A stretch of DNA of 64,000 nt, taken from an uncultured Candidatus Saccharibacteria bacterium (lineage in GTDB: Bacteria; Patescibacteriota; Saccharimonadia; Saccharimonadales; JAGQNJ01). The notes beneath the pieces were generated by a model, which had not been told where the DNA came from, searched no databases, and saw nothing but the letters and a program-made list of their open reading frames with translations. Of this stretch, positions 17,441 through 52,708 are shown one piece after another. The stretch covers positions 70,751 to 134,750 of the forward strand of contig CAYRSA010000003.1 in NCBI GenBank assembly GCA_964426845.1. Reading direction: 5' to 3'. The position numbers and the translations under genes are program-made. How positions within the stretch are numbered: the stretch's first letter is position 1; each line of letters starts with the position of its first letter.

Positions 17441-17441
17441 T

Positions 17442-18777: not shown

Positions 18778-19368
18778 ATGGTTAAGAAGTTACCAGACCT
18801 GGAAAAACATAAACACTCTCGGCTGAGTCAGGTGTTTGGTTCAAAGCGCAATCGGATGCTAGTGATCGTTGGCGTACTTGTCTTGGCTATAGTTGTAGCG
18901 GCCGCCATAATTATCAGTCAGCCTTCTCAAGACGAGCAAGACATAGCTGATATGAATGCCCTCAGTGAACAATCGGCTGCTTTGGTGGCGGACTATAAGT
19001 ATGGTCAAGCTATAGCCCTGTGGCAGGCATTCTTAAAGAAACCACTCAGCCCAGACGTAAAGTGTGAGGCTAATTTGCGCTATGGCATAACCCTTTTAGA
19101 TAGCTTTAAGTACAATGATGCCTACGATAACCTCGTCGGCCTGCAGGAATCATGCAAAAATGTCGATCAGTACACTTTGACCTTAGGCTTAGCTAAGAGC
19201 GCCGATGGCGGGGCCCGAATTGTTCCAGCTATCGACAATTACAAAAAGGTCATTGACCAATTGAAACAAAGGCAAGAAAATCCACCCAAAGATTTCAACG
19301 CTGAAGAGAATCAAAAGATGATTGCCGATTACCAAGAGACAATAAAGATTTTGGAGAGCAACTTATGA
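18778..19368 (+). CDS. Membrane-anchored helical-repeat protein, copy 2
   Basis: Translation identical to 10579-11169 (offset +8199). Confidence 0.5.
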   Translation: MVKKLPDLEKHKHSRLSQVFGSKRNRMLVIVGVLVLAIVVAAAIIISQPSQDEQDIADMNALSEQSAALVADYKYGQAIALWQAFLKKPLSPDVKCEANLRYGITLLDSFKYNDAYDNLVGLQESCKNVDQYTLTLGLAKSADGGARIVPAIDNYKKVIDQLKQRQENPPKDFNAEENQKMIADYQETIKILESNL

Positions 19369-21695
19369 TCGCCCGAAAGCTAAAACGCCTAGTTCTGCTT
19401 GCTGCGGTGAGTTTATTATTTTTGACAGGTGTGGCTGGCTCGCTGCTGTTCCAGGCTAGCAAGGCTTTTGCCCAGGCGCCAGGCCTTAGGTTCCAGGTAC
19501 TGAAGAACGGTTCTTGTACTACTTCGGTAAATTCCGGAGACTTTGTAAATGTCAAAATATTTCGTGACGCCACCAGCGGTACTATAAGTAGCCTACAAGT
19601 TAAAGTTAATGGTGCCAATGTGACTACAAATCCCAGCTCAATTACCGGTTCGGCTAGCAACTTAGAAATTGCTGCGCCGACGCTGTCACAAAACCCCAGC
19701 ACTATAACCGTCACCGGTTGGAATAACAACCAAAGCCAATCTGTAACATTTACCGCCTATTGCCAAGCTTCTGGTGTCAATTATGGCACTAACGGCTGGG
19801 GAGTGACAGTTAACACCAATACCAGTGGCGGCAGTAGCGGAACCGTCAATACAACTGCCTGCACGCCAACAGCCTGGTTTCAGCAGGGTAATTCTAGCTC
19901 GGCCAGCAGAATGTCCTATCTAGACTTGTCCCAGTCGAGTGCGACAGTTGTGAATAGCGGAGCCGCCTATACAGCCCAATTAAACGGCTCTGGTTATAAT
20001 AAGACCGACCAATACTTCTATGGCTTTACGCCTAGTTCTGGTTACGGTACGCCCGGTACTTTGTACCAATTCGATAGTCAAGGTGGCTCTAGAAGTCTGG
20101 GAATAGTCCTGCCTTCAGCAACCTACGGTGATGGTTGGTTTGCCGGTGATGTTCGAGGAGCTGGCATTCCTGGCCAAGATAACTACCTGTACGTAGTTCA
20201 ATTAAACAGCAACAAGATCTACAAGATTAATCTGGGAACTGTAAGCGGCGCAGCCACCAACAGAATAGCTGCAACCGTTACTACTAGCAGAACTACCAGG
20301 CTTAACGATGTCGCCTTTAGTCCCCAGGACGGCAAGCTTTACGGATTTGATCAGAACCAAGGGGTTTTTGTAAGAGTTGACCCAAGTAGCGGCACAGTAA
20401 CTAATATTAGCCAGCCCTATACAGCCAATCCTCACGGTGTAGCCTGGTTCTACCAAACTAGCAGTGGCACCGCTTTTTACTCCTATGACAACACAGGACA
20501 AATATACAGGTTTCTAGGTATCGAAAACTACGGTCCTGGCAATCTTTTGCCAGTCCAGCCACCTTGGAAATCGGCTACCTCAACCCAACAAAACGATGGT
20601 TCAGTCTGTGCCACTACTGGAGACCCGTTCTGTACGGCTCCTGATGGCTCCACCTGGCCCATTGGCCACGCCAATTGTAATCCTCCACCACCGGACGTTT
20701 GCCCTAACATAGCCGGCAGCCAGACGGCTGTGCCAACTGGCTACGTCAAGAACTCCGCTGGAGACTGTGTCATACCAGCTACGCCTTATCTAAGAGCCTA
20801 CGGCAACGATTTGGCGGTGGGTAGTGCTTTTGGGGCTAGTTGTGACGTTCGTGATAATGATGCTACATTCCGAGCTCGCGCTAGGTCAGTAACTAGTAAT
20901 ACTTGGTCTGGGGCCTCCGGCCAATTTGCGCTCTTGGCTTTGGGCCAAATTGACGGCTTCTATAGCTCGAACCTGCGCAATCCGCCCACAGGTCCTCCTA
21001 ATCCGCGAGTCGGTTTAACTTTCGGTAACTTCAACGGCTCGGCCCAGGTTACTGACTACGGGGGCTCAGGTGCTCAAAGCCGCTGTTTACCAGATTTCAT
21101 GAACAAGGCTTTTGCTGGTCAGTTAGAGACGGGCAATCGTACAATCAACACCACATCAGTCCCCGAATGCACAACTGCTACAGCAGCAACCTGTAGACAG
21201 GCTAGATTCATCCGCGGCGACGTCTATATCAATGGCAATATCACCTTTGATAACGCGGGTGGCTGGTCATCACCGAATAAGATCCCTAGTTACTACTTGG
21301 TCGTGGAGGGAAATATCTACATAGCTCCGGGAGTTACTCAATTAGACGGCGTGTTCATAGCCCAACCTAAGTTCACCGGTGGGGTAATGGACGCCAACAC
21401 CGGACAGATCCGCACCTGCGCCAGCTCGACGGGTGGAAACTTCACAACCATAAGCGCCTGTAACAATACATTGACAGTTAATGGAGCATTTATTGCTCAC
21501 CGCGTACTTTTCCAGCGCACAAAAGGTGACTCTAACGCCGCCAGCGCCACTGAAGGAGTCAATGATACTGGCAATGTGGCTGAGGTATTCAAGTTTAGCC
21601 CCGAGACTTATCTGGCGACACCGCCAGCAAATTTCCAAACCGGTCAGTCTCTCAAGAAGTACGATTTCATCACCAGTCTGCCGCCAGTCCTGTAA
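19365..21695 (+). CDS. Large secreted putative tip adhesin, copy 2
   Basis: Translation identical to 11166-13496 (offset +8199). Confidence 0.5.
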   Translation: MIARKLKRLVLLAAVSLLFLTGVAGSLLFQASKAFAQAPGLRFQVLKNGSCTTSVNSGDFVNVKIFRDATSGTISSLQVKVNGANVTTNPSSITGSASNLEIAAPTLSQNPSTITVTGWNNNQSQSVTFTAYCQASGVNYGTNGWGVTVNTNTSGGSSGTVNTTACTPTAWFQQGNSSSASRMSYLDLSQSSATVVNSGAAYTAQLNGSGYNKTDQYFYGFTPSSGYGTPGTLYQFDSQGGSRSLGIVLPSATYGDGWFAGDVRGAGIPGQDNYLYVVQLNSNKIYKINLGTVSGAATNRIAATVTTSRTTRLNDVAFSPQDGKLYGFDQNQGVFVRVDPSSGTVTNISQPYTANPHGVAWFYQTSSGTAFYSYDNTGQIYRFLGIENYGPGNLLPVQPPWKSATSTQQNDGSVCATTGDPFCTAPDGSTWPIGHANCNPPPPDVCPNIAGSQTAVPTGYVKNSAGDCVIPATPYLRAYGNDLAVGSAFGASCDVRDNDATFRARARSVTSNTWSGASGQFALLALGQIDGFYSSNLRNPPTGPPNPRVGLTFGNFNGSAQVTDYGGSGAQSRCLPDFMNKAFAGQLETGNRTINTTSVPECTTATAATCRQARFIRGDVYINGNITFDNAGGWSSPNKIPSYYLVVEGNIYIAPGVTQLDGVFIAQPKFTGGVMDANTGQIRTCASSTGGNFTTISACNNTLTVNGAFIAHRVLFQRTKGDSNAASATEGVNDTGNVAEVFKFSPETYLATPPANFQTGQSLKKYDFITSLPPVL

Positions 21696-21812
21696 GTATT
21701 TTTCCACAACGGGGTAAACGGACCTTAAAAGAGCCTTGCAATTCAAAGTGTTTATGGTTACCATACAAGTATCAATCTATAAACGGGCATCGAATAAAGG
21801 GGTAAAATAACA

Positions 21813-22292
21813 ATGAAAAAACTACAAAAAGAGCAAAAAGGCTTCACAATCATCGAAGTTATGATCGTCTTGGTCATCGCTGCGGTGATCATCCTGATCG
21901 TTTTCTTGGCGGTTCCAGCCTTGCAACGTAACGCTCGAAACAACCAACGTAAGAGCGACGCCGCTCGTATTAGCGCAGCTGTTAGTGAGTATACCAACAA
22001 TACTAACGGTAGCCTGCCAACTACTTGGGGTAACATCAAGCCTTACCTAGGTAACATGGCTTTCTATACCACCCTGCCAGCAGACGGTGACGCAATTGGT
22101 AACGCGACAGCCAACCAAACAGTTGCTACCGCTGACACCGCTCCAGCTGTGGCCAAAAGGGCAACCTGCAACACTACGGCCGGCGACGTTAACATCGGTA
22201 AAGCCGTAACCAGTACTCAAGATAGACAATTTGTCGTTCTCTACAAAACTGAAGGTGGATCAACCGAACCTTCTCAGTGTATTGCTGGCTAA
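21813..22292 (+). CDS. pilA: Major type IV pilin, copy 2
   Basis: Translation identical to 13614-14093 (offset +8199). Confidence 0.8.
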   Translation: MKKLQKEQKGFTIIEVMIVLVIAAVIILIVFLAVPALQRNARNNQRKSDAARISAAVSEYTNNTNGSLPTTWGNIKPYLGNMAFYTTLPADGDAIGNATANQTVATADTAPAVAKRATCNTTAGDVNIGKAVTSTQDRQFVVLYKTEGGSTEPSQCIAG

Positions 22293-22311
22293 TAGCTAAC
22301 AACTAGTACTT

Positions 22312-22335
22312 AAACAGCCCTTCGGGGCTGTTTTT
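22312..22335. terminator. Bidirectional intrinsic terminator, copy 2
   Basis: Same hairpin as 14113-14136. Confidence 0.7.
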
Positions 22336-22343
22336 GATTGGCT

Positions 22344-23258
22344 TTATTCAGCTTTGCGGTGATATTGGTCGTGAACTTTTTTGAGGTGGGGGTCAGTGAC
22401 ATGAGTGTATATCTGGGTAGTAGCCACGTTGCTGTGGCCCAGCATGGCCTGGACGGACCGCAGATCGGCTCCATTCATAAGCAAGTCAGTGGCGAAAGAG
22501 TGGCGCAGGGTGTGCGGGGAGACGTGTTTGGTGATGCCGGCTAGCTTGGCGTAGCGGGCCACCATCCGCTGGATGCTGCGGGCAGTTAGGCGTTTATAGT
22601 TGCCGCTATTATCAGCAGTTGAGCGGCCACCATAGCTAATAAACAGGGGTGGCAGACTATCCTCACGTCGGTTTAAATAGCCCTGAACCCAATCAGCCGC
22701 GGTAGGGCTTATGAAAATCGGCCGGTCCTTCTGGCCCTTGCCTCGGACCATGAACTCCCGGCGTTGCATGTTTACATGGTCGCGGTTGAGATTGACCAGT
22801 TCCGAGACCCGCAAGCCACTGGAGAATAGCAATTCCAAGATGGCTCGGTCGCGCAGTCCGCTGATTTCTTGGATCTTGGGTTGGGCGAACAGGCGTTCTA
22901 GCTCTTCAGGGTTAAGGAAGGTTACTTGCTTTCGTCGAGTGCGGGCTAGTTCAATTTTGTCAGCTGACAGGGCAGGGATGCTCCGCCGAGCACAGAATTT
23001 CAGAAATGAACGGAGGGCAATTAGATGATAGTTTTGGGTAGTTTTGTCCAACTCATCAGAGGTGTTGGTGCCCAGGCGGTTCAGCCACAGGCGCCATTTT
23101 TGGATAAGTTCAGGAGTGATATCCGAAACGTTGATATCGCCGGCATAGTCTTCTAGACGGGTGAGGTAGTGGTCGTAGTTATGAATGGTTTTTCCGGAGC
23201 GGTTTTGCTCGATCTCTAAGTATTCTAGAAAATCGGTCTTGGCTTTGGAAAAACGCAT
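22344..23258 (-). CDS. Xer-type site-specific tyrosine recombinase, copy 2
   Basis: Identical protein from ATG 23258. The listed ORF start at 23327 is an upstream extension. Confidence 0.85.
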   Translation of the reverse strand: MRFSKAKTDFLEYLEIEQNRSGKTIHNYDHYLTRLEDYAGDINVSDITPELIQKWRLWLNRLGTNTSDELDKTTQNYHLIALRSFLKFCARRSIPALSADKIELARTRRKQVTFLNPEELERLFAQPKIQEISGLRDRAILELLFSSGLRVSELVNLNRDHVNMQRREFMVRGKGQKDRPIFISPTAADWVQGYLNRREDSLPPLFISYGGRSTADNSGNYKRLTARSIQRMVARYAKLAGITKHVSPHTLRHSFATDLLMNGADLRSVQAMLGHSNVATTQIYTHVTDPHLKKVHDQYHRKAE

Positions 23259-23360
23259 ACTCTTATTGTAATACACTAATGCTTCCAACTGGCATTCTAA
23301 TCTGTTATACTGCCCACAAGAATACAAAATGTATACAATAATCAGTAAAAGGAGACAGCC

Positions 23361-23873
23361 TTGGAACGAACTCTCATAATTTTAAAACCGGATGCCGTTA
23401 AGCGCGGTATAGTCGGCGAAATCATCAGCCGCTTTGAAAAAGCCGGCCTGAAAATTGTTGGAGCCAAGATGTTACAACCGGATTATGATCATTATCACAC
23501 GCATTACGAGGGTATCAGTAAGATGATTTCTCGCCGAGGGCAGGAGGCTTTCGATGTTACCCTGGAAATGATGCAAGAAGGGCCTGTTATTGCGTTTGTT
23601 CTAGAAGGTGTTAATGCCGCAAGTTTGGTGCGAAAGATGGTAGGTGACACCGAGCCCGAGAAGGCTCTGCCAGGTACGGTTCGTGGCGATTACGCCCACA
23701 TGGGCTTTGCTCACTCCAATAAAGAGAGGATTGGTGTGCCAAATCTGATTCACGCCTCCGGTGATGCTGACGAGGCCAAGGTGGAGATTGCTCATTGGTT
23801 TTCGGAAGCTGAGCTATTTGAATACGAAGCTGTTCACGAAGTTTACACTCAAGCCAGAAGTCGCAAGAAATAA
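23361..23873 (+). CDS. ndk: Nucleoside diphosphate kinase
   Basis: TTG start with AAAGGAG 7 nt upstream. MERTLIILKPDAVKRG and the active-site His motif NLIHASGD are present. 170 aa. Confidence 0.9.
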   Translation: MERTLIILKPDAVKRGIVGEIISRFEKAGLKIVGAKMLQPDYDHYHTHYEGISKMISRRGQEAFDVTLEMMQEGPVIAFVLEGVNAASLVRKMVGDTEPEKALPGTVRGDYAHMGFAHSNKERIGVPNLIHASGDADEAKVEIAHWFSEAELFEYEAVHEVYTQARSRKK

Positions 23874-23876
23874 AGC

Positions 23877-23961
23877 TGGTGCCCCGGGCAGGATAGACGC
23901 CCGTTACCTTCGGTAACGAACGAACCTGCGACTATTGCCTGCTAGCGCAGTCACGTCGCAG
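23877..23961 (-). other. Partial copy of the tRNA-Arg 3' end with a 27-nt hairpin insertion in the T-loop position
   Basis: 23877-23894 and 23922-23932 equal the tRNA-Arg 3' portion (T arm, acceptor 3' strand, CCA). The tc of the T-loop is replaced by agacgcccgttaccttcggtaacgaac (23895-23921). 23955-23961 is complementary to 23926-23932. No 5' tRNA half is present. Confidence 0.5.
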
Positions 23962-23987
23962 AACCGTATCTTACAAGATGACCAACG

Positions 23988-24010
23988 AAAAAACTGGCCT
24001 TTCGACCAGT
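23988..24010 (-). terminator. Intrinsic terminator after tRNA-Arg
   Basis: The minus strand reads ACUGGUC-GAAA-GGCCAGU followed by UUUUUU. Confidence 0.6.
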
Positions 24011-24018
24011 TCTTCCGT

Positions 24019-24095
24019 TGGTGCCCCGGGCAGGATTCGAACCTGCGACGCCCGCCTTAGGACGGCGGCGCTCTAATCCACTGAGCTACCGAGGC
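24019..24095 (-). tRNA. tRNA-Arg (anticodon CCU)
   Basis: Hand-folded cloverleaf, 77 nt. Acceptor GCCUCGG/CCGGGGC, D arm GCUC..GAGC, anticodon arm CCGCC-GUCCUAA-GGCGG, T arm GCAGG-UUCGAAU-CCUGC. CCA is encoded. Confidence 0.9.
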
Positions 24096-24158: not shown

Positions 24159-24767
24159 ATGGCAAAGCTGTCAAAAGAAAAACATTCGTCCAAGCATCAA
24201 GAAAAGCCTGAAAAGTTATTCGATGATCAGTTTGACGACGAGGAAGTGCTGTATGTTTTCCGCAAACACCCGGTGGTCATGCGCAAAGGCCTGGTTATTG
24301 CCAGTGTGGCTATATTACTGCCAGTCTTATTTATTGGGGCGCTGACATTCCTAAAGCCTGACAACCCGCCTTCAATACCAGCTTTCTTCAGCAGTTTAGG
24401 ATTTGGTATGGCCTTAGCTTTTATCGTGTTCTTCCCAAGCTGGATAGCTTGGTACTACAGTATTTTCATCGTCACCGACAAACGGCTCATCCAAATTGCT
24501 AGGAAGGGGCTCTTTCACAAGACAGTGGTAGATATGAATCTGAACCAGATCCAGTCTATGAATTACCAAGTCAGCGGAATTCAAGAAACACTGCTTAAGT
24601 TTGGTACAATAATGATACAAACCTACATGGGTGATTTAGTGATTCATGAAGTTCACCACCCGGAAAAGGTCCAAAAAACCATCGCCAACATCCTGCGCGA
24701 TCAAGGGATTAGCACAGCAGCTCTGAGCCCCGAACAGATGGAGCAGATGGCCAATTCAGGAGAATAA
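24159..24767 (+). CDS. Membrane protein with bacterial PH-like domain (YdbS/YdbT-like)
   Basis: 202 aa with two TM helices and then a beta-rich region. The resemblance to DUF304-type proteins is judged by eye only. Confidence 0.45.
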   Translation: MAKLSKEKHSSKHQEKPEKLFDDQFDDEEVLYVFRKHPVVMRKGLVIASVAILLPVLFIGALTFLKPDNPPSIPAFFSSLGFGMALAFIVFFPSWIAWYYSIFIVTDKRLIQIARKGLFHKTVVDMNLNQIQSMNYQVSGIQETLLKFGTIMIQTYMGDLVIHEVHHPEKVQKTIANILRDQGISTAALSPEQMEQMANSGE

Positions 24768-25876
24768 TGAAAAGAGTTTTCAGAAAAGCTAAAAAAACTG
24801 CCGCTGGTGTTAAAGCCAAGGGCGAAGAGTATGTTGAAGCTAAGCGGGTGGAAAATGAACCACCTAAAAAGGTTCCTAACATCACCAATACAGCCATACC
24901 AGAGCACCGCGAAGAGGTGCTATCGTCGGCTCGGAAGTTTATCTATCCTCTGCAGCACTCCAAGCACAAGATTGTTCTAATATCGATCAGCTTAGTCGTT
25001 ATAGCTCTGATTGCCTTCTTCTCTTACGCCACAATTTCCTTGTATCGACTGGGTTCAAGTACTAACTTTATGTACAAAGTCACCCAAATCGTACCATTCC
25101 CGATTGCCCGGGTTGGCCGGGACTTTGTAGCCTATGAAAACTACCTATTTGAACTTCGTCGCTATAAGCATTACTACGAAACCCAGCAAAAACTTGATTT
25201 TGACAGTGAATCTGGCCAACAGCAACTAGAGGAATTCGAACGCCGAGCTCTTGACCGCGTGGTGACCTTGGCCTACGTTAAAAAGCTTGCCAAAGAGAAG
25301 GGGATTACAGTCAGCGACCAAGAGGTTGAAGAGCAAATAACCCTGTTAAAAGACCAAAACCGCCTGGGTAATGGCGACCAGGTTTTCGAAGATGTTCTTC
25401 AGGACTACTTTGGTTGGTCCAGGGCCGACTTCAAACGATATCTGAGTCAAGAGATCCTGATTCAAAAGGTAGTGGCCGCCATGGACACTGAAACGGTGGA
25501 TCGGGCCAATGCCGCTTACGCCGAGTTGCAAGCTGGTGCATCCTTCGAAGACGTGGCTAATAAGTATACTGACGACCAGTCGGGTAAGGGTACGGGCGGT
25601 GCTTACGGCTTTGATATTACTAAGACTAGTCGCGACGTTACCCCTCAGGCTACCAATACACTGTTTAGCCTTCAGCCAGGGCAGTATTCAGCTGTGGTTA
25701 ACACCGGTTACAGCCTAGAAATCTTCAAGCTCATCGAGAAGAAGGGCGAGACCGTTAAGGGTGCTCATATCTTGTTTAACTTCAAAGATCCTAGTAGTTT
25801 TACCAATGACATGAAGGAAAAACAACCTTCACGTGTCTATATTCCGACCACACCGGCTCCAGCGCCAGCTCCATAG
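24767..25876 (+). CDS. Membrane-anchored parvulin-type peptidyl-prolyl isomerase (PrsA/SurA-like)
   Basis: 369 aa with an N-terminal TM anchor, a helical chaperone-like region and a parvulin-like segment (FEDVANKYTDDQSGKGTGGAYGF). Confidence 0.6.
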   Translation: MKRVFRKAKKTAAGVKAKGEEYVEAKRVENEPPKKVPNITNTAIPEHREEVLSSARKFIYPLQHSKHKIVLISISLVVIALIAFFSYATISLYRLGSSTNFMYKVTQIVPFPIARVGRDFVAYENYLFELRRYKHYYETQQKLDFDSESGQQQLEEFERRALDRVVTLAYVKKLAKEKGITVSDQEVEEQITLLKDQNRLGNGDQVFEDVLQDYFGWSRADFKRYLSQEILIQKVVAAMDTETVDRANAAYAELQAGASFEDVANKYTDDQSGKGTGGAYGFDITKTSRDVTPQATNTLFSLQPGQYSAVVNTGYSLEIFKLIEKKGETVKGAHILFNFKDPSSFTNDMKEKQPSRVYIPTTPAPAPAP

Positions 25877-25991
25877 CTTTACTTTACAGAGGCGAAGTGG
25901 TACTATTCGTGCAACAGGTTTTTTACTAGTCACTGTGTGCGATGTAGAAGGGTCGACCTGGAAAGATAAGATAAGAAAAGGTAAGTAAACA

Positions 25992-26261
25992 ATGGCTAGT
26001 AAACTATATGTCGGCGGACTTCCTTATAGCATGGGTGATGACGAACTTTCTGACGCTTTCAAAGAGCACGGAACAGTAGTCTCAGCAACTGTTATTAAGG
26101 ATCGCGATACTGGACAATCCAAAGGTTTTGGATTTGTCGAGATGAGCTCCGACGAAGAAGCACAAGCAGCGATCAAGGCTCTTGATAATCAAGAACTAAG
26201 TGGTCGTCGCATCCGTGTCAACGAAGCGCGCCCTAAAGAAGAGCGCCCACGAAACTACTAA
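25992..26261 (+). CDS. RRM-type RNA-binding protein
   Basis: RNP-2 motif LYVGGL and RNP-1 motif KGFGFVEM. 89 aa. Confidence 0.85.
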   Translation: MASKLYVGGLPYSMGDDELSDAFKEHGTVVSATVIKDRDTGQSKGFGFVEMSSDEEAQAAIKALDNQELSGRRIRVNEARPKEERPRNY

Positions 26262-26276
26262 GAGTACTTCCGTGAA

Positions 26277-31739: not shown

Positions 31740-34700
31740 GTGCACATACCTAAACACAAACGAACACCGATATTAAAACTGCTTATTGCAGCGGTTTTGG
31801 TTGGTTTGTTGGGCATAGGCCTTAAGTCTCAGTCGTCAGTCCAGGCCGCCACAGGCATCAACGAGCAGATCAACTACCAGGGAAGACTGCTGACAAGTAC
31901 AGGGGCGGTGGTTCCAGACGGAACCTACAACATGGAGTTCGAGATTATCCAGGACGGCGATGGATGTAATCCGACTTCTGGTACACCTCCTTGCGGAGGA
32001 ACGGTGGAATGGACCGAAACTAGGACAGGAGCTGACAAGGTTACCGTTAAAAACGGTTATTTTTCGGTTTATCTGGGGTCGGTGACGCCGTTTAGTAGCA
32101 GTGTTGATTGGAATCAAGACACTCTGTGGCTGTCAGTAAACATCGGTGGTACTGGTTCGCCCAGCTGGGACGGTGAAATGGAGCCCTTTAATCGCCTAAG
32201 CTCCAGCCCCTATGCCCTAAACTCCAAAGCCTTGGGCGGTTTAACGGCCAACGACTTCGTAAAACTAGCCCAAGGATCGCAAACCGATGCATCACTGGTT
32301 TCCAGTATATTTATCAACAAAACAGGGGCCAGCGGTAATATTCTAGAGCTAGAAAATAACGGTTCCGATGTCTTGTTACTGAACAATACAGGGGCGGTGA
32401 CTTTCCAGAATACGGTTGATTCGACAACCGGCTTCCAGGTTCTTGATGCAGATGGTGGTACATCTATTCTTACAATAGACACAACGAATGAATTTGTAGG
32501 TATAGGCGGGACCCCGACTCAAATATTTGACGTTAATAGTCCGACTTCAAATACCATTAGGCTTAGGGTCGGAACAGCTCTGACTGCTAACCCTTATAAC
32601 TTAGGTACTAACAGCGGAAGTCAAATCGTCCTATCATCAGAGACGGGAACTTATCGTCAGGCTCTGGTTTTCGCAGACACACCCGGTAGTTCTGAAACAG
32701 TTTTCGGTATTGCTAGTAGCAGTAACTCCGGTTCAAACTGGACTCCACTGTTTAAAATTGCTCACAGTGGGCTAACTACGTTCCAAAATGCTACAGATAG
32801 CACGGGTGGCTTTGTTATTAACGATGCCGATGGTGGTACTCCGATACTCAATATAGATACCACTAACGAGAGGGTAGGTATAGGCACAGCCAGTCCGAGC
32901 AACACCCTGAGCGTGAATGGCACGGCTGATTTTCAGGGCCACGTCGCTGTTGGCTCCGGCGCAACTGTAAATGGCGCCTTAACAGTGGTAGATTCATTAA
33001 TAGGTGTATCAAGTCACAGTACAATACTGAGTGTTTACGAAACAACCACTACCACCGGGTCTGCTTCGGTGGGGTATGATGGCCTTTTGGTTAATAACAT
33101 CCTAAATCCATCTGGGACGGCAAGCTATGGTCAGGTTAACGGCCTCAACGGCTTCCTAACAGTGGCCTCGGGAAACGCCCAGAATATTTCAACCGGTGGT
33201 GGCACCAACGGGTTTAATGGAGGTGTTATTCACGCAGGTAGTGGGACAATTAGCGGTAACACATCTGGAGTGAATGGCGCTGTAGTTAATTCCGGCGGTG
33301 GCACACTAGATATAACCAACGGAGTGAATGCTACTATCGTACAAACAAGCGGCACAATTAATGCCGCACGTGGCATCAATATTGCTACTCCGATAAACTT
33401 CGGAACGATTACCGATAATTATGGCCTATACATCAATGACCAGTCTGGCGTTGGTGCTAGTGACAGCTACAACATTTACTCTGCTGGGGCATCCTCGCAG
33501 AATTACTTTGAAGGAGCTATTATTGCCGGCTCCGCCGACACAGTTCTAACCCTGTCTACTGGAAAGATTGACGGTGATGCTCTGACTCTCATTGCTGCCG
33601 CAGACGGCGGAGCCGGTACTTCCTCTGGTTCTGGTCTAACGATCCGCAGTGATGGAGTTGGGCTACTGCAGGGCTGCTCAGATGCCCAAGTCCTAGCCTG
33701 GGTAGAAAGCACGGATACCTGGGACTGCTCCACACCATCTGGTGGTGGTGCAAACACAGCTTTGTCTAACATAGCCAGCACCAATTTAAGCGCTGCCCTA
33801 AACGTCACTTCAGGCAATCTTAACCTAACTACTACAACCAGTGGAAACATCGTACTTAACTCGGCTGGAACCATAGAGCTTCAGGACAACACTACTATAA
33901 CCGGTACGCTGTCTGTTCAGGGAACAACTGCCTCTATCGGGGTTAATGATACAACAGGCGGATTCTTGGACATTTTTGGTAATGGAACAGGTACCGCAGA
34001 GGGCGGAGAAGCTAGACTATACCTGGCGGCAGACTATGACACATCATTTAGTTCATTAGTATTTGACGCGTACGAAGATGACTTAAGGATTCATAACGGA
34101 AGTAGCGTTTTGTTAACACTACAAGGTGATTCTGGTAACGCTGACTTCCTGGGTACGCTAACCGCCGGCTCCGCCGACACAGTTCTAACCCTGTCTACTG
34201 GAAAGATTGACGGCGACGCTTTGACACTAATTGCTGCTGCAGATGGCGGAGCTGGTACTTCCTCTGGTTCTGGTCTAACTATCCGAAGCGACGGGGTAGG
34301 ACTACTACAGGGCTGTAGTGACGGCCAAGTTCTTGCTTGGGTAGAGTCCACCGATACCTGGGACTGTACAACCGGCGGTGGCGGCGGAGCCAACACTGCT
34401 CTATCTAACCTATCTGCAGTAGCCATAAATACATCACTACTACCAGCCTCAGACGATGCTATCGACCTAGGTGACAACACCCATAGATGGCGAGACCTAT
34501 ACTTGGGCGGTGACACTCTACATATCGGTACCAGTACCTCAGACGAGGGAACGCTTTCTTACAACACCACAACCAACGTCCTGCACTTTGGCACTGATTC
34601 AACAACTAACGGCGACATAGCCTTCTTTACCGACGATTTATACCTAGACAAATCAACGGGGTTTGTCGGCGTAGGAGATGCTACACCAAATGCTCGACTT

Positions 34701-37700
34701 GAGATTAACAACGTTGGCTCTGATACTAATCCGCTTGTTGTTAATACAAATGGTTCAGCAGGTAATTACACCCCTACTAATTCCGGTATTTTTATAAAGG
34801 ATGCCTCTGGCAATGAGCTGTTACGCATTTTTGCCTCCGATCCAGACCCCACCTTTGCTAATTACAATACTTGGAATCTATACATTGGGCATGAAGCCGG
34901 CCTTAGTAACCCAACTGCCAACGCTCCGGGCTCCGGGTATGCGAATACTGGTTTAGGGTACGATGCGCTTCGAGCAAATACATACGGATCCTACAACGTG
35001 GCTGTCGGCATAAAGGCGCTAACCCTCAACACAGTAGGCGACGGTGTCACTGCAGTGGGAGCATACGCTCTAGCGGCTAACACATTGGGCGACAGCAATT
35101 CAGCTTTCGGATATGCGGCCCTTGAGGAGAATACAACGGGTGAATACAATACAGCGGTTGGCTACGACGCACTCAATGCTAATATAACTGGCGACAACAA
35201 TGTCGCAACCGGTTATTACGCACTTGCCTATAATGAAACTGGCGACAATAACGCAGCATTTGGTTACGACGCATTGGGTAATACTGGTAAACGGGTTACA
35301 GCTGGTTCGTTCGTGACAGGAGTAAGTTATACTATCCAATCGATTGGTACTACAGACTTTACGCTGATAGGTGCAGCCAGCAACACGGTTGGGCTTGTCT
35401 TTACTGCATCAGGTGCTGGTACGGGTACTGGAACTGCATCTAGTAATAATGGTAACAACGTGGCCTTTGGTTACTATGGACTGGGCGATTTGCTAACAGG
35501 TAGCAACAACACTTCCATCGGCCATAATACCGGGCTAGGCATAACCACTGGTAGCAACAATACGATTCTAGGTGCTAACGTTACAGGTCTTAGCTCGAGT
35601 CTGTCTAATAACATCATCATTGCCGATGGTTCGGGTAACCAAAGAATCAATGTAGATAATAATGGGAACGTAGGTATCGGCGATCAAACACCAGATGCGT
35701 TGTTCAATGTTGATCTGGCGGCAGGAAAACAAGTATTATTCGAGGCCACGGCTGCGCCCACGGTGGATATGGTGGCCATTACCAATAGTGGACAGGGAAC
35801 TACAACAAATGGTGTTGATGGATTATCTATCACATTTGTTAGCGGGGATGACGGCGGGTCTGATACTAACTTTGGCCTTATGGTGAATGCCACATCTGGT
35901 ACAGAAGGGGATAGCTTCGGGGCCGCACAGTTCATGCTGAATAATCAATCTACTGGCGGTGCTCAGGCGGCAGTTACTGTTACGAATGCTGATCATGCAG
36001 CAAATTCAAACACAGGGGCACTTTTATGGCTAAATAACCTAGAAACTACGGCCGATAAAGTGGGGAATTACTTGTTTATAACTACAAGTTCTACTGATAC
36101 TGCTGGTGATGCTATCGATGTGTCTGATAGTGGCCTTTATAACGCCCTCAACGTTGGAGATAACAATATAATCGGTACAACGGCTGTAGTTGATTTTAGT
36201 AACTTCGATGTCTCTTCTGCCGGCAACATCACTGTTGCTGTGGATGAAGGGCTCGATACTAACGCGACAGGCGCTCTGGAGATAGGAAAGGCCAACGCTA
36301 CTTCGCTTGACATCTGTAACTCCTCAGCCTGTGACACTGTAAATATTGGCAACTTAGCAACTGATGACGCTGACACAATAAACATTGGAGGAGATTTGGA
36401 CACTGTCGACATAGTTAGTCACGAATTCACTCGTGCCAGCGGACTCTTGAGTATAAAGAGTACAAACAGCAACGCCGGCTTGTTACTGCAAAGTGATGGC
36501 CTAACCACCGGACTGACTGGTGGTGGATTGCAACTAAGTGGTGGTGGCTACGATGATTCTGCTGACCGCGCATGCATAACTGCCGGGGCCACGAGTGATT
36601 GCGGCACTTTCACTGCCCGTTCTACAGAAGCTTCAGGAATTGCCTTCACAGACGGAAGAATTACATTTAATACAAGAGGAAGCCTAACGATCGGAAATAC
36701 TTTTAGTTTCACTGAACGAATGAGGATCGACAACAATGGAAATGTCGGGATTGGGGACGACACCACCCCCGACGACTACCTGGACGTACAATTTTCGGAA
36801 AATGCCTCGAGGGGAGTCAGAATAGAAAACAATAATGCAGGTAATGCCGCATCAGCAGATCTCCAGGCTATTAACAACTCTGGGTATGGTGCTTCATTTG
36901 CAAAGATGTCTTCAGGACACGCAGGATATAAAACATTTGCTGCAAATGACGCATTAGTATGGAACGATAACAATGCTGGCAACATTGTCATACATAATGA
37001 TTATGCCTCTGGTAACATATTGTTCTCCGCCGGTGGTTCATCAACGGCTCAGATGATCCTAACGTCCGCTGGCAACGTTGGTATAGGTGATAGCACCCCC
37101 GACGGAAAGTTTGAAGTGGAAGATACAGCTGGCTCTCTTATAACCGTCAGCCAAGCCAGCGCCGACAGTTTCGACAGAGCCAGAGTTCAAATAGGTAACG
37201 CCGGCAACGGTTTGGACCAACTGTATGTCAACGGACGATTCAATACAGCTTATCAGATGTTCTTCCAAGATTTCTTGGGTAATATAGCTACCCTTGCGGC
37301 CGACGGCAACTGGGGCAACAGCTCTTTCGATGAAATTGTGGGTACCGGTGGTACATCGCCTTCAGGCTCCATCCAGATCGTAAACACCACAGGTGTTTCT
37401 GGCGCGGCCCGACTTACCTTTACTGGTACGCTTGGCACCGGACCATGGGGAAGCAACTGGGGTACAGCCGGGATACTATTCACCGAGAGATCCCTAAACC
37501 CAGTAATGGAAGCTAGAGTAATAGCTAGCTCCAACACCGACCAGCGGGCTGTAGTAGGCTTTACCGATGTGGCAGCTAATACGACTGTGTCTGCGGACAC
37601 TAACCTATCAGCCAATGAGGCTTTCTTCCGAAAAACTGCTGCCGGTACTCAATGGGAGGCAGTGAGTAGAGCTGGGTCCGGAACGGAACAAGTTACTACT

Positions 37701-38597
37701 AGTGTTGGTAGTACCAGTAGCTACCAACTACTGCGCGTCGAACTGGATGAAGTTAATGATGCGGTTAAATTTTACGTAAATAATTCGATTGTGGCTACAC
37801 ATAGCACCGCCGTACCCGCTACTTCAACACGTCTTGGCTGGAATGTCATGAACACCCCGACGACTACGACATACTCTGGTCGTGTTGTGGATATCGATTA
37901 TGTCCGTGTATGGTCTGATGATCCGCCTAAGTCGCAGAGCAATTCGGGATTGGATTACGAGTTACCAGAAGAACCAGAATCGCCTGACCAAGACGCAGAA
38001 TCATTAGAACTAGATATTGCCGATGACGAGATTCCAGATGCTGAAGATCTGATATCTGACCTTAGCGAACAAGACCCGGTCGCTGACGAAGTTGAAGCCA
38101 CTGGCGAGGAGAGCGGTGTCTTGGGAGTCAGCGATGACCAATCTGGCAATCTAGGGTCGGTTACTATAGACTCGGCAACTATAACCCTAGACCTAAATGT
38201 CACAGGTATGCTATTCGCTAACGGTGGTCTAAAGGTGGCTGGGCCATCAGAATTCATGGGTGATGCCATATTTAACAGCCTAGTCAGCTTTATCGGGCCA
38301 TCGGATTTCACTGGTGATGCTAACTTTGCAGGAAGAGCTACCTTCAACAAAGATAGTGGCGGTTTCGCAGTCATCCAGACCGGCAAACAAGAAGTCAAGA
38401 TTGTCTTCGATCGGCCATACGCTGATGTGCCAGTAGTCACTCTGACCAATAAGAATGGCCAGTTCATAGACTATGCCTACAAGGATCTGACCAAAGACGG
38501 CTTTACTATCATTCTCAAGGATCCAGCTGTTGCTGATGTAGAGATGTCCTGGACGGCTCTGTCGGTCAAGCAGGCCAAGGTTACAGTTTCTCCTTAA
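31740..38597 (+). CDS. Giant (2,285 aa) secreted fibre/adhesin-like protein
   Basis: GTG start with a signal peptide ending VQAA. Five tail-fibre-like N-[VI]-G-[IV]-G motifs and a YadA-head-like repeat block (NVAVGIKAL..NSAFGYAAL..NTAVGYDAL..NVATGYYAL..NAAFGYDAL). A LamG/jelly-roll-like region (LLRVELDEVNDAVKFYVNN...IDYVRVW), an acidic linker and a C-terminal beta domain follow. Confidence 0.8.
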   Translation: MHIPKHKRTPILKLLIAAVLVGLLGIGLKSQSSVQAATGINEQINYQGRLLTSTGAVVPDGTYNMEFEIIQDGDGCNPTSGTPPCGGTVEWTETRTGADKVTVKNGYFSVYLGSVTPFSSSVDWNQDTLWLSVNIGGTGSPSWDGEMEPFNRLSSSPYALNSKALGGLTANDFVKLAQGSQTDASLVSSIFINKTGASGNILELENNGSDVLLLNNTGAVTFQNTVDSTTGFQVLDADGGTSILTIDTTNEFVGIGGTPTQIFDVNSPTSNTIRLRVGTALTANPYNLGTNSGSQIVLSSETGTYRQALVFADTPGSSETVFGIASSSNSGSNWTPLFKIAHSGLTTFQNATDSTGGFVINDADGGTPILNIDTTNERVGIGTASPSNTLSVNGTADFQGHVAVGSGATVNGALTVVDSLIGVSSHSTILSVYETTTTTGSASVGYDGLLVNNILNPSGTASYGQVNGLNGFLTVASGNAQNISTGGGTNGFNGGVIHAGSGTISGNTSGVNGAVVNSGGGTLDITNGVNATIVQTSGTINAARGINIATPINFGTITDNYGLYINDQSGVGASDSYNIYSAGASSQNYFEGAIIAGSADTVLTLSTGKIDGDALTLIAAADGGAGTSSGSGLTIRSDGVGLLQGCSDAQVLAWVESTDTWDCSTPSGGGANTALSNIASTNLSAALNVTSGNLNLTTTTSGNIVLNSAGTIELQDNTTITGTLSVQGTTASIGVNDTTGGFLDIFGNGTGTAEGGEARLYLAADYDTSFSSLVFDAYEDDLRIHNGSSVLLTLQGDSGNADFLGTLTAGSADTVLTLSTGKIDGDALTLIAAADGGAGTSSGSGLTIRSDGVGLLQGCSDGQVLAWVESTDTWDCTTGGGGGANTALSNLSAVAINTSLLPASDDAIDLGDNTHRWRDLYLGGDTLHIGTSTSDEGTLSYNTTTNVLHFGTDSTTNGDIAFFTDDLYLDKSTGFVGVGDATPNARLEINNVGSDTNPLVVNTNGSAGNYTPTNSGIFIKDASGNELLRIFASDPDPTFANYNTWNLYIGHEAGLSNPTANAPGSGYANTGLGYDALRANTYGSYNVAVGIKALTLNTVGDGVTAVGAYALAANTLGDSNSAFGYAALEENTTGEYNTAVGYDALNANITGDNNVATGYYALAYNETGDNNAAFGYDALGNTGKRVTAGSFVTGVSYTIQSIGTTDFTLIGAASNTVGLVFTASGAGTGTGTASSNNGNNVAFGYYGLGDLLTGSNNTSIGHNTGLGITTGSNNTILGANVTGLSSSLSNNIIIADGSGNQRINVDNNGNVGIGDQTPDALFNVDLAAGKQVLFEATAAPTVDMVAITNSGQGTTTNGVDGLSITFVSGDDGGSDTNFGLMVNATSGTEGDSFGAAQFMLNNQSTGGAQAAVTVTNADHAANSNTGALLWLNNLETTADKVGNYLFITTSSTDTAGDAIDVSDSGLYNALNVGDNNIIGTTAVVDFSNFDVSSAGNITVAVDEGLDTNATGALEIGKANATSLDICNSSACDTVNIGNLATDDADTINIGGDLDTVDIVSHEFTRASGLLSIKSTNSNAGLLLQSDGLTTGLTGGGLQLSGGGYDDSADRACITAGATSDCGTFTARSTEASGIAFTDGRITFNTRGSLTIGNTFSFTERMRIDNNGNVGIGDDTTPDDYLDVQFSENASRGVRIENNNAGNAASADLQAINNSGYGASFAKMSSGHAGYKTFAANDALVWNDNNAGNIVIHNDYASGNILFSAGGSSTAQMILTSAGNVGIGDSTPDGKFEVEDTAGSLITVSQASADSFDRARVQIGNAGNGLDQLYVNGRFNTAYQMFFQDFLGNIATLAADGNWGNSSFDEIVGTGGTSPSGSIQIVNTTGVSGAARLTFTGTLGTGPWGSNWGTAGILFTERSLNPVMEARVIASSNTDQRAVVGFTDVAANTTVSADTNLSANEAFFRKTAAGTQWEAVSRAGSGTEQVTTSVGSTSSYQLLRVELDEVNDAVKFYVNNSIVATHSTAVPATSTRLGWNVMNTPTTTTYSGRVVDIDYVRVWSDDPPKSQSNSGLDYELPEEPESPDQDAESLELDIADDEIPDAEDLISDLSEQDPVADEVEATGEESGVLGVSDDQSGNLGSVTIDSATITLDLNVTGMLFANGGLKVAGPSEFMGDAIFNSLVSFIGPSDFTGDANFAGRATFNKDSGGFAVIQTGKQEVKIVFDRPYADVPVVTLTNKNGQFIDYAYKDLTKDGFTIILKDPAVADVEMSWTALSVKQAKVTVSP
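33525..33770 (+). repeat. Internal 246-nt module of the giant gene, copy A
   Basis: Aligns without gaps to 34164-34409 (offset 639). Confidence 0.85.
34164..34409 (+). repeat. Internal 246-nt module of the giant gene, copy B
   Basis: See 33525-33770. Confidence 0.85.
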
Positions 38598-39139: not shown

Positions 39140-39167
39140 AAAAAAGACCTCCACTCGGGGGTCTTTT
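39140..39167. terminator. Bidirectional intrinsic terminator
   Basis: aaaaa-gacctcc-actc-gggggtc-tttt. Confidence 0.7.
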
Positions 39168-39259
39168 CATTTATCCTGGCGGGCCCGACCGGATAGACGC
39201 CCGTTGACTTCGTCAACGAACGAATCGGCGATCTGGCTCGCATTCGCTCGCTGATCGCC
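39166..39259 (-). other. Partial copy of the tRNA-Asp 3' end (plus 11-nt trailer) with a 27-nt hairpin insertion in the T-loop position
   Basis: 39166-39194 is identical to 39314-39342. The tc of the T-loop is replaced by agacgcccgttgacttcgtcaacgaac (39195-39221). 39253-39259 is complementary to 39227-39233. No 5' tRNA half is present. Confidence 0.5.
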
Positions 39260-39324
39260 TCGCTTGACTCGATAGGACAGCAGTACAAATAAAAAACCAC
39301 CTATCGGCGGCATTTCATTTATCC

Positions 39325-39402
39325 TGGCGGGCCCGACCGGATTCGAACCGGCGATCTCCTCCGTGACAGGGAGGCGTGTTAGGCCAGCTACACCACGAGC
39401 CC
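39325..39402 (-). tRNA. tRNA-Asp (anticodon GUC)
   Basis: Hand-folded, 78 nt. Acceptor GGGCUCG/CGGGCCC, anticodon arm CCUCC-CUGUCAC-GGAGG, T loop UUCGAAU. CCA is encoded. Confidence 0.9.
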
Positions 39403-39505: not shown

Positions 39506-39910
39506 ATGAGTCCCAAACGAAATGCTGGAGAAGTTATCATCCCTCAAGGAGTTACAGTTTGGCATCATGAACTACGAACAGCGAACGCCTTAGCTAGTGT
39601 GGGTTTTGTCGTGAAGTTTTTGGCGACTAGCGACACACGATACGAGAAGTCTCCGGACATTTCGATTAACGGCATTAAGTGGGAGCTGAAATCGCCCAAA
39701 ACAGATAAATTGACAGCTATTGAGCGTAATCTTAAAAGGGCCAGCAAGCAGTCGGGCAATATTATCATTGACTCTCAGCGCATGGTTAAAATACACGACT
39801 CAACCATTCAAAACTTACTTGTACATAAGTATAGGCAGCAAAGAAACATAAGGCGACTGTGGTTCGTCAACCGCAAACGACAAGTTATTGACGTCGGCGA
39901 AATCCCTTGA
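39506..39910 (+). CDS. Small PD-(D/E)xK-like nuclease-fold protein (toxin-domain-like), function unknown
   Basis: 134 aa. Motif spacing is E(22)...SPD(61)ISINGIKWE(70)LK(72)...Q(92). Flanked by tRNA-Asp and tRNA-Thr and followed by a hairpin plus T-tract near 39925-39967. Confidence 0.4.
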   Translation: MSPKRNAGEVIIPQGVTVWHHELRTANALASVGFVVKFLATSDTRYEKSPDISINGIKWELKSPKTDKLTAIERNLKRASKQSGNIIIDSQRMVKIHDSTIQNLLVHKYRQQRNIRRLWFVNRKRQVIDVGEIP

Positions 39911-51686: not shown

Positions 51687-52334
51687 ATGGCAATCCAAAA
51701 AGAGATACACAAATCATACGAATTCCAAGATTTTGCCGAGGCCATGCGCTTTGTGGGTAAAGTGGCGGATTTGGCTCAGAAGGTAGATCACCACCCGAGG
51801 ATTCAGATTGATTACAACAAGGTTGAGCTGTGGTTCACGACTCATTCAGCTGGCAAGGTGACCGTCAAAGACAAGAATCTGGCTGAACAAGTAGACGGCC
51901 TAGTCCAAGATCGGGCTCCGACCGGTGATTTGCCAACAGAGGTAAAGTTCTTCGGCGACGGTGGCTCTCGGGGTAATCCTGGCCCGGCCGCCGCCGGCTT
52001 TGTGTTAATGGATATGGACGACCACGTCCTAGAAGAAGGCGGCGAGTTCATGGGTATCACTACCAACAACCAGGCCGAGTATCACTCTCTGGAAATGGGG
52101 CTGGAGCGGGCTCTGGAGGCCGGCGTTAAGAAGATTCACGTCCATATGGACAGTCAGCTGGCCATTAGGCAAATCAGCGGTCAATACAAGGTTAGAAGCC
52201 CTGACTTACTACCCAGGTATAAGAATGTGAAGAGTCTGCTGTCTAAATTTGAAGAAGCAACTTGCGTGCACGTGCCGCGGGAGCTCAACAAGCTAGCTGA
52301 CGGCGAGGTTAACCGCATACTAGACAGCGTTTAA
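51687..52334 (+). CDS. Fusion protein: pterin-4a-carbinolamine dehydratase-like domain + RNase HI domain
   Basis: The N-terminal domain has the PCD signature DHHPRIQIDYNKVELWFTTHSAGKVTVKD. The C-terminal domain has RNase H motifs DGGSRGNPGPAA, NNQAEY, DSQLAIRQ and NKLAD. Confidence 0.75.
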   Translation: MAIQKEIHKSYEFQDFAEAMRFVGKVADLAQKVDHHPRIQIDYNKVELWFTTHSAGKVTVKDKNLAEQVDGLVQDRAPTGDLPTEVKFFGDGGSRGNPGPAAAGFVLMDMDDHVLEEGGEFMGITTNNQAEYHSLEMGLERALEAGVKKIHVHMDSQLAIRQISGQYKVRSPDLLPRYKNVKSLLSKFEEATCVHVPRELNKLADGEVNRILDSV

Positions 52335-52353: not shown

Positions 52354-52699
52354 GGGCCAGGTTATCGACTAGCTACCTCGGTAAAACGAGGAGGAAAGTC
52401 CGGGCAACATAGGGAATGGCAGTTGCTAACAGCAACCAGAGGTAACTCTAGGGAAAGTGCCACAGAAACTATACTTCCTGGTTCGCCAGGTAAAGGTGAA
52501 AAGAGTGAGGTAAGAGCTCACGATGCGTGCTGGTGACAGTGTGCGATGGTAAACCCTGTCTGTTGCAAGGAACATATTCTATGAACTTCGGTTCCAGTCC
52601 CCGCTGAGAATGTGTGATCAACCGCTCGATCTTTACGGCGACGTAAAGGCTAGATAGATGGCTAGTGATAACAGAACCCGGCTTATAGATAGGCTGGCA
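52354..52699 (+). ncRNA. rnpB: RNase P RNA (bacterial type A-like)
   Basis: Universally conserved P4 strands GAGGAAAGUCCGGGC (near 52391) and ACAGAACCCGGCUUA (near 52670). P1 pairs GCCAGG.. with ..CUGGC. The end coordinates are approximate. Confidence 0.85.
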
Positions 52700-52708
52700 T
52701 ATGAAAAA

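Follow-up and report, generated by a model that had tools for sequence, protein, structure and literature searches.

A candidate miniature cassette at the T-loops of two tRNA genes in a Saccharibacteria chromosome

What is the extra DNA that separates a tRNA-Asp gene from a second copy of its own 3' end in a chromosome of the Saccharibacteria (TM7)? The question is raised by a stretch of 64,000 nt (assembly GCA_964426845.1, contig CAYRSA010000003.1, positions 70,751-134,750 of the forward strand), called the window hereafter, whose coordinates are used throughout. The window is chromosomal Saccharibacteria DNA: the nearest homologues of its NDK and of a conserved 152-aa protein are found in Saccharibacteria/Saccharimonadales assemblies. 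Its gene content is ordinary and includes type IV pilus machinery with a secretion ATPase set, NDK, an Xer-like recombinase, ThrRS, TGT, MiaA, the RNase P RNA and five tRNAs. Two of these tRNAs, tRNA-Asp(GTC) and tRNA-Arg(CCT), both on the minus strand, are each followed by a non-coding segment and then by a repeat of their own 3' end. Because the geometry is that of a T-loop insertion, in which a repeat accompanies the replaced 3' end and relatives have precise empty sites, we read this segment as a miniature integrative cassette, namely a non-coding, non-autonomous mobile element of ~120-125 nt that would insert site-specifically at tRNA T-loops. We give this reading a probability of a little under one half (about 0.45).

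The inserted segment at tRNA-Asp and tRNA-Arg

In tRNA sense, tRNA-Asp is followed by a unique segment and then by an exact copy of the sequence running from T-loop A59 to CCA and through 12 nt of trailer (GGATAAATGAAA; Table 1). The first-pass annotation had noted an exact repeat here, which is real but spans 30 nt and not the 29 nt it had given. The last 18 nt of the tRNA gene (39325-39342) are the tRNA part of the cassette-side copy, and shuffled sequences yield a chance expectation of 0.04 matches for this part. The insertion point lies in the T-loop, between GGTTCGA and ATCC. The pseudo 3' half at this locus reads, in RNA sense, GAUCGCCGAUUCG-UUCGUUGACGAAGUCAACGGGCGUCU-AUCCGGUCGGGCCCGCCA, of which GAUCGCCGAUUCG-UUCGUUGACGAAGUCAACGGGCGUCU, a copied segment of the tRNA variable loop and T-stem 5' strand followed by a hairpin module, stands directly 5' of the downstream repeat copy (at higher window coordinates). 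The tRNA-Arg locus has a direct repeat of 18 nt. Both tRNAs score as normal despite the insertion, the repeat restoring the gene.

The order of the parts (H1, spacer, H2, H3 and repeat) is common to both tRNAs. In tRNA sense, every variant consists of the tRNA 3' end, a trailer, H1, a spacer of ~25 nt, H2, GGUU, H3, UCU and the displaced 3' end. Outside the H3 module of ~36 nt, the Arg and Asp cassettes are unrelated in sequence. H1, near the left cassette end, is a predicted intrinsic terminator. In the Asp cassette it consists of a GC hairpin (39296-39311) followed by a U-tract, and the trailer (39313-39324) pairs with 39281-39294, extending the stem. The two strands of this extension, the trailer and the U-rich segment, change together among lineages, as read from the sequence: they are GGAUAAAUGAAA with UUUUAUUUGUACUG in the window, GUAGAAAUGAAA with UUUUAUUUCUAUUG in L042 and GUACAAAUAAAA with UUUUAUUUGUAC in L039. 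The pre-existing terminator beyond the right repeat serves the gene of the 152-aa protein and, at empty sites, tRNA-Asp too.

Loci of relatives (labelled L0xx) were retrieved via the flanking proteins and then compared at the tRNA-Arg and tRNA-Asp sites. The Arg site is empty in L024, L026 and L043, in which tRNA-Arg directly abuts the end of NDK or its neighbour. It is occupied by 124 extra nucleotides and an 18-20-nt repeat in L023, L025, L001-L005 and the window, and by a diverged cassette version of 122 nt in L027. The Asp site is empty in L031-L038, where the native trailer and terminator come straight after tRNA-Asp, and the Asp cassette is present in L020, L021, L039, L042, L044 and L045. 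Synteny is rearranged in L042 and L047, which are not simple orthologous sites. Altogether, the cassette is present in more than 10 independent assemblies and is therefore not an assembly artefact; it was found in one Saccharibacteria lineage. From the empty sites of relatives it follows that everything between the tRNA and the downstream repeat, 119-124 nt, belongs to the inserted unit. It also follows that this repeat is the original tRNA 3' end, displaced, and that the copy joined to the tRNA came with the cassette. The earlier picture of a hairpin inserted into a tRNA tail was accurate as a description, but the unit is larger than the hairpin and the tail is the displaced 3' end. Comparison of the alleles thus supports well the interpretation of the feature as an insertion. 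The cassette lengths are uniform in three independent cases (119, 122 and 124 nt).

The flanks of the Arg site are 100% identical across 1463 nt between the occupied locus L025 and the empty loci L024 and L026. Judged by these alignments, the comparison shows that the cassette was gained or lost very recently. The Arg cassettes of the window and of L023/L025 differ at only 2 of 124 positions (98.4% identity), whereas in the same genomes identity is 79% in the neighbouring DNA of the integrase and NDK genes and 81% in the intergenic stretch upstream of the tRNA. The high-identity tract ends at the tRNA on one side and at the right repeat on the other. Near-identity in such diverged genomes is good evidence that the Arg cassette has spread horizontally. 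Recombination between the repeats could account for some of the empty alleles, but not for the near-identity across diverged genomes. The two sites are occupied independently, as on one contig (L042/L043) the Asp site is filled and the Arg site empty.

The length of the repeat differs between lineages (9, 18, 20 or 30 nt). Outside the window lineage, it stops at CCA (18-20 nt), or it is cut to 9 nt in L042. The trailer borne by the cassette conforms to G(G/T)A(T/C/G)AAAT(G/A)AAA in all four Asp lineages (window, L039, L042 and L044), and the native trailer after tRNA-Asp in L031, L039 and L044 is of the type (A)GATTGA or TATTGA. The right flank in the window bears a trailer of the cassette type, a trailer identity seen only in the window lineage. 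The 12 additional identical nucleotides are thus most simply explained by a secondary event in that lineage, e.g. conversion or a tandem intermediate, and would not belong to the basic repeat.

The surroundings of the two sites vary as well. At the empty Arg allele, the convergent NDK and tRNA-Arg genes are only 2-3 nt apart, with no terminator between them (L026:3013-3016; the corresponding window positions are 23873-23877), and the cassette brings the sole terminator-like hairpin between these genes. In two lineages a SHOCT + DUF6325 gene pair lies between NDK and tRNA-Arg (L027:3018-3689 and L043:861-1529). Its presence does not depend on the cassette: L027 has the cassette and L043 lacks it. 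In L039, an island of more than 3.3 kb is found at the expected position of tRNA-Asp (L039:5290-8435), immediately upstream of the Asp cassette. On it lie genes for a DUF7736 protein with PHROG matches and an SLFN_AlbA_2 protein, and a weak HNH-like open reading frame (ORF). Its junction is marked only by a degenerate tRNA-end relic, TTATGGACCGCCAG, and the island is devoid of an H2-H3 arm; from its sequence, the arrangement looks like tandem accretion by a different element. Finally, a block coding for a bPH protein, a SurA-like rotamase and an RRM protein adjoins tRNA-Arg in the window (24159-26262). The bPH and SurA-like genes lie between the homologue of the 152-aa protein and the Asp cassette in L042 (10456-12514) and L044 (10460-12134), together with an RRM gene in the former and a NUDIX gene in the latter. 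The interval between the two cassette-bearing tRNAs thus looks permuted between lineages. The 9-nt right repeat of L042 is at the junction of the permuted block.

Table 1. Positions of the cassettes, their parts and adjoining features in the window
Feature	Position	Strand	Basis or remark
tRNA-Asp(GTC), functional	39325-39402	-	ARAGORN; Rfam tRNA, 61.5 bits
Left repeat copy at tRNA-Asp (A59 to CCA + 12-nt trailer)	39313-39342	-	exact repeat
Inserted Asp cassette, 119 nt of unique sequence	39195-39313	-	absent at empty tRNA-Asp sites L031-L038
H1, candidate intrinsic terminator for tRNA-Asp, cassette-borne	39281-39324	-	terminator scan
Spacer, without supported structure	39260-39280	-	duplex with 3' arm no better than shuffles
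H2 of Asp cassette	39227-39259	-	4/8 pairs altered on both sides across Arg + Asp variants
H2 of Asp cassette, 5' strand	39253-39259	-	GGCGATC
H2 of Asp cassette, 3' strand	39227-39233	-	GATCGCC
H3 of Asp cassette, 11-bp hairpin, GAA loop	39198-39222	-	5/11 pairs altered on both sides
Right repeat copy, displaced original tRNA-Asp 3' end, attR-like	39165-39194	-	repeat and empty sites
Bidirectional terminator, pre-existing	39140-39166	.	terminator scan; same hairpin directly after tRNA-Asp in L031-L038
tRNA-Arg(CCT), host of the sister cassette	24019-24095	-	tRNA scan, Rfam
Left repeat copy at tRNA-Arg	24019-24036	-	identical to 23877-23894
Inserted Arg cassette, 124 nt	23895-24018	-	absent in L024, L026, L043
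H1 of Arg cassette	23987-24015	-	
H2 of Arg cassette, two strands	23955-23961 and 23926-23932	-	
H3 of Arg cassette	23898-23922	-	
Right repeat copy, displaced original tRNA-Arg 3' end, 18 nt	23877-23894	-	3 nt from NDK stop codon

Helices H2 and H3

H2 is a stem of 7-8 bp. Its 3' strand copies the variable-loop/T-stem 5' segment of the host tRNA, and its 5' strand matches that copy. The 5' and 3' strands are CUGCGAC and GUCGCAG in the Arg cassette of the window, CUGUGAC and GUUACAG in that of L027, GGCGAUC and GAUCGCC in the Asp cassette of the window (where the loop is 19 nt long), and GGUGAUC and GAUCGCC in that of L044. In L027, a G-C pair of the tRNA T stem has become A-U, with a matching change in its pseudo T-arm, its repeat and the 5' strand of H2.

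H3 folds as 11 bp (CGUUCGUUGAC/GUCAACGGGCG). The base of the hairpin, CGUUCG/CGGGCG, is invariant, including two U.G pairs. The tip is UUACC/GGUAA, UUGGC/GCCAA, UUGAC/GUCAA or UUUGGC/GCCAAA, and L044 has a larger structure of 33 nt. The Arg and Asp loci share identical hairpin flanks, and in the stem they differ at two pairs, through double, compensatory substitutions. In all variants, the right boundary of the cassette-specific sequence is located 3 nt past the 11-bp H3, that is, 7-8 nt past its 7-bp variable core.

Several claims made at the outset from the two window copies were borne out by these comparisons: the same hairpin module at the same T-loop position of both tRNAs, the compensatory changes in its stem, and the 7-nt upstream complement matched to each locus. 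The larger alignment whose lack of covariation would have counted against them now comprises the H2 and H3 helices of seven variants. Paired bases occupy 96.9% of its cells, and 9 of its 19 pairs are altered on both sides. None of 500 shuffles was as good, and pairing fell to 18-45% with slid partners. The alignment provides good evidence that H2 and H3 are under structural constraint. However, template switching in DNA palindromes can mimic covariation, so the helices alone are no proof of selection. L042 retains H2 and H3 with compensatory changes next to a right repeat of only 9 nt, which indicates that the tRNA-like tail is not the conserved core.

A covariance model (R1) was built from H2 and H3. 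Its scan of the window returned the Arg and Asp copies only, and no further diverged copy, the tRNA-Thr, tRNA-Val and tRNA-Pro genes included. We also asked whether the spacer matches the tRNA 3' arm in degenerate reverse-complement form, so that the unit would fold into a long hairpin in imitation of its duplex target. This proposal was rejected: the duplex energies of spacer and 3' arm are no better than those of shuffles in five of five variants, and cross-pairings score as well as cognate ones.

Explanations for the cassette

The cassettes contain no ORF, and at 119-124 nt they are too small to code for a protein. No sigma-70-like promoter was found inside either of them, and a terminator lies directly upstream. 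In Rfam 15, only the genuine tRNAs and the RNase P RNA passed, with nothing relevant over the cassettes at E values up to 10. A strict motif pattern gave one match in genome contigs, in a Chloroflexi coding region without hairpin or tRNA, and 13 matches in metagenome contigs, all of them due to chance. The viral collection yielded nothing for the motif or the Asp tRNA 3' end, and the Arg 3' end matched only phage-borne tRNA-Arg(TCT) genes. Searches of phages and plasmids with blastn returned nothing relevant. Two simple origins were tried and dismissed. A decayed second tRNA copy would not fit, as homology is lacking upstream of the variable loop. The absence of a 5' half and of a bulge-helix-bulge motif, and the bacterial nature of the organism, contradict an archaeal-type intron or split tRNA.

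If the segment is a mobile cassette that inserts at T-loops, it would bring along the stretch of tRNA from T-loop A59 to CCA in a copy of its own, together with a trailer and the intrinsic terminator H1, so that the tRNA would stay intact. The original 3' end would be shifted ~120 nt downstream and left as a direct repeat. This right repeat is preceded by a pseudo T-arm, made of the copied variable-loop/T-stem 5' segment, the H3 module and TCT. A recombinase provided in trans probably moves the cassette, acting on the T-arm in the manner of tRNA-integrating tyrosine recombinases. The pseudo T-arm retains both T-stem half-sites, and once H3 is extruded, 2 + 5 = 7 nt would be left between them, the length of a T-loop; these nucleotides are TT + TCTAT (TCCAT in L042). 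The presence of another island at the same tRNA-Asp in L039 also counts in favour of this reading, by marking the gene as a hotspot.

Several points weigh against it. The genome, metagenome, viral, phage and plasmid data yielded no autonomous relative that shares the arm; the patterns used on genomes and metagenomes were strict, and those collections represent the lineage poorly. None of the cassette copies has a linked recombinase, transposase or relaxase. The sole tyrosine recombinase in the window is Xer-like (22344-23288), with 132 bits versus an integron-integrase cut-off of 265, and it is syntenic beside NDK in relatives with and without the cassette. A double-stranded circle of ~140 bp would be physically awkward as an intermediate. 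The compensatory hairpins are not typical of double-stranded att sites of tyrosine recombinases, and they rather point to a folded single strand. Lastly, the 26-nt module between the two putative half-sites is unlike any canonical core site.

The cassette might instead belong to a new class of ultra-small elements (~120 nt) that would recognize tRNA genes through their own folded single strand, DNA or RNA, a proposal that we regard as rather unlikely. The 5' strand of H2 would complement the tRNA-sense strand left of the T-loop. The free tail has the sequence of the tRNA-sense strand to the right of the T-loop, and its partner would be the opposite strand. Both segments together would lead a host or helper enzyme to the insertion point, and a switch of target from Arg to Asp would call for nothing more than rewriting them. 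Another explanation, in our estimation distinctly unlikely, posits a single-stranded-DNA mobile element whose hairpins are the recognition sites, with cleavage or exchange just 3' of H3, at GTCT|ATCC. The enzyme would be an HUH-type nuclease, like those of IS200/IS605 derivatives, repetitive extragenic palindromic (REP) elements and relaxase nic sites, or an Xer- or integron-like recombinase acting on the folded strand. The constant distance of 3 nt between the 11-bp H3 and the cassette/repeat boundary in all variants, and the invariance of the hairpin base and 3' flank beside a freely varying tip, speak for such a mechanism. So do the G.U (G.T) pairs that work only on the tRNA-sense strand, namely those of H2 in L027 and L044 and the two that are invariant in H3, and a unit of 120-140 nt is easily handled as a single-stranded circle. 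A possible likeness to relaxase nic regions serves as a lead only. Nevertheless, no HUH domain was detected among the window proteins scanned, HUH transposons normally leave no target duplication, and no part of the cassette is complementary to the right half of the tRNA site. Moreover, relaxases are rare in Patescibacteria (PMC12102498). A folded ssDNA recombination site, as listed by the first-pass annotation, is conceivable. The same strand-specific wobble pairs, together with fold energies that are lower on the tRNA-sense than on the opposite strand, are also in line with a functional structured RNA, made in tRNA sense by read-through of H1. Its two hairpins and its free tail identical to the tRNA 3' end could form a decoy, a processing signal or a guide. 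H1 appears clearly to act at the RNA level, as a terminator, and the helices are kept in lineages in which the cassette appears to be vertically inherited. However, the missing promoter, the terminator immediately upstream and the absence of any Rfam match weaken the earlier suggestion of a small RNA exposing a tRNA-like tail. The same holds for L042, which has compensated H2 and H3 helices but has lost the tail beyond 9 nt. An RNA role would also leave the insertion and the repeat unexplained, and we consider it improbable.

Two further explanations require no dedicated enzyme or no present activity. The cassette might be a natural knock-in, spread by transformation and homologous recombination, with the intact tRNA (77 nt) as the left arm and the duplicated 3' end (18-30 nt) as the right arm, such that any related genome with an empty tRNA could take it up. 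The high-identity tract bounded exactly by the tRNA and the right repeat in diverged genomes, the lack of a linked recombinase, and the variable length of the repeat, which fits homology-driven rather than fixed-stagger events, all agree with this possibility. Saccharibacteria are naturally competent (PMC10633639), and genes for a type IV pilus and secretion ATPase set are found in the window. What transformation does not explain is the first origin of the cassette at two different tRNAs that share the T-loop boundary and the H3 module, nor the compensatory upkeep of H2 and H3, and an arm of 18 nt is very short for RecA-dependent exchange; as the full account of the cassette we find it doubtful. 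The other explanation is an inert scar, in which the cassette would be the attR-side arm of larger tRNA-integrating islands whose interior was deleted, with covariation generated by template switching in quasi-palindromes. The island at tRNA-Asp in L039 provides the tandem layout described for decayed elements (PMC5704250), and the hairpin tips swap wholesale rather than base by base. Such a scar would hardly show uniform lengths of unique sequence and the same architecture at two tRNAs, 98.4% identity across genomes that are 79% identical, and presence/absence polymorphism between identical strains. In addition, the H2 5' strand tracks a substitution of the tRNA, and the L039 island has no H2-H3 arm at its own end. 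Among the options listed by the first-pass annotation, remnants of tRNA-targeting integrative elements came closest, but the polymorphism and the near-identity argue against inert remnants, and we give little credence to a scar.

Neighbouring genes and known systems

The window holds other features of note away from the cassettes. A tandem duplication of 8,199 bp (6984-15182 and 15183-23381) differs by 17 mismatches between its copies, all located in the first ~250 and last ~90 nt, with an identical interior. It copies minor-pilin-like genes (N_methyl, PilX_N and DUF6923) and the Xer-like recombinase, and it ends ~20 nt inside the start of NDK. In L001, the one close strain read that far upstream, the fetched stretch shows one such set beside NDK; the duplication is thus either very recent or an assembly effect. 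Between tRNA-Asp and tRNA-Thr, a stand-alone ORF of 134 aa (39506-39910, plus strand) has a CdiA_C toxin-type domain (E = 6e-11), without a large CdiA body, NCBIfam match or PDB relative. The ORF of 119 aa after tRNA-Thr, which has no family, could code for its immunity partner. A link between this toxin-like ORF and the cassette was rejected, as nothing comparable is found at the Arg locus and neither structure nor family membership supports it. A 215-aa protein (51687-52334, plus strand), encoded just upstream of the gene for RNase P RNA (52357-52701), fuses a pterin-4a-carbinolamine dehydratase with an RNase H-like domain (RVT_3/RNase_H), an unusual combination. Finally, a giant ORF of 2,285 aa (31740-38597, plus strand) contains internal repeats in units of 249 nt (at 33525 and 34164) and 63 nt (at 32445 and 32823). 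The homologous giant genes of relatives are strongly variable in length, from 1,087 to 2,662 aa, with no Pfam match on record.

If the cassette is truly mobile at ~120 nt, few known elements with site-specific insertion would be as small. It occurs in the Patescibacteria, a phylum in which mobile DNA is poorly understood. Its design would be that of a minimal 'safe landing', which combines a new 3' end for the tRNA with a terminator and a structured module for recombination. The cassette would also offer a tractable route to an enzyme recognizing tRNA T-arms in these bacteria. In practical terms, such repeats and pseudo tRNA ends can mislead tRNA annotation, island finders and assembly.

A number of described systems share part of these traits. 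Miniature inverted-repeat transposable elements differ in that the ends of the cassette are not inverted repeats (ACGGAAG... versus ...GGGCGTCT in Arg, ATGCCGCC... versus ...GGGCGTCT in Asp) and that its repeat of 9-30 nt is not a short duplication of fixed length. Unlike integron attC sites, the cassette sequence has no visible GTTRRRY core, and there is no cassette array. The integrative mobile elements exploiting Xer (IMEX), i.e. the CTX, VGJ and TLC phages, borrow the host Xer recombinase. They resemble the cassette in having no recombinase of their own, an Xer-like host recombinase being present here too, and CTX uses a folded single-stranded site. However, they target dif, are kilobases long and code for proteins, whereas the target of the cassette is a tRNA T-loop, and no dif-like sequence was recognized at it.

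The hairpin elements mobilized by HUH enzymes, such as the palindrome-associated transposable elements (PATE) of IS200/IS605 and the REPs or bacterial interspersed mosaic elements (BIME) with their REP-associated tyrosine transposases (RAYT), are closer in form. Like the cassette, they are non-coding units of ~100-150 nt with covarying hairpin stems, a boundary a few nucleotides 3' of a conserved hairpin and hints of strand-specific folding. In contrast, they lack a long direct repeat, are not tied to tRNAs and occur in many copies, while the cassette has two copies in 64 kb, both at tRNAs, an 18-30-nt repeat and no HUH gene in the window.

A cis-mobilizable element (CIME) is a decayed integrative and conjugative element (ICE) or integrative and mobilizable element (IME) that keeps attL and attR without recombination or transfer genes (PMC5704250). 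The cassette answers this description insofar as attL/attR-like repeats flank a segment devoid of such genes, and it is likewise non-autonomous, able to sit in tandem with an island and presumably dependent on a trans-acting recombinase. The CIMEs described so far are decay products of kilobase size, with a known ICE as their relative. The cassette is ~10-100 times smaller, uniform in size and structurally conserved, and no parent of it was found in the collections searched.

The nearest likeness is with genomic islands and prophages integrated at tRNA genes by tyrosine integrases of the T-loop class. As in these, the insertion begins in the T-loop and brings a replacement 3' end that leaves the tRNA functional, the original 3' end is kept as a direct repeat (attR), the empty sites are precise, and the same tRNA is reused, as in L039. 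The cassette departs from them by its length of 119-124 nt, by the lack of an integrase or any ORF and of a known autonomous partner, by the hairpin module that splits its pseudo T-arm and by the second helix, which sequesters the copied T-stem strand. We file it as a variant on the tRNA-integrating theme that is a member of no named family.

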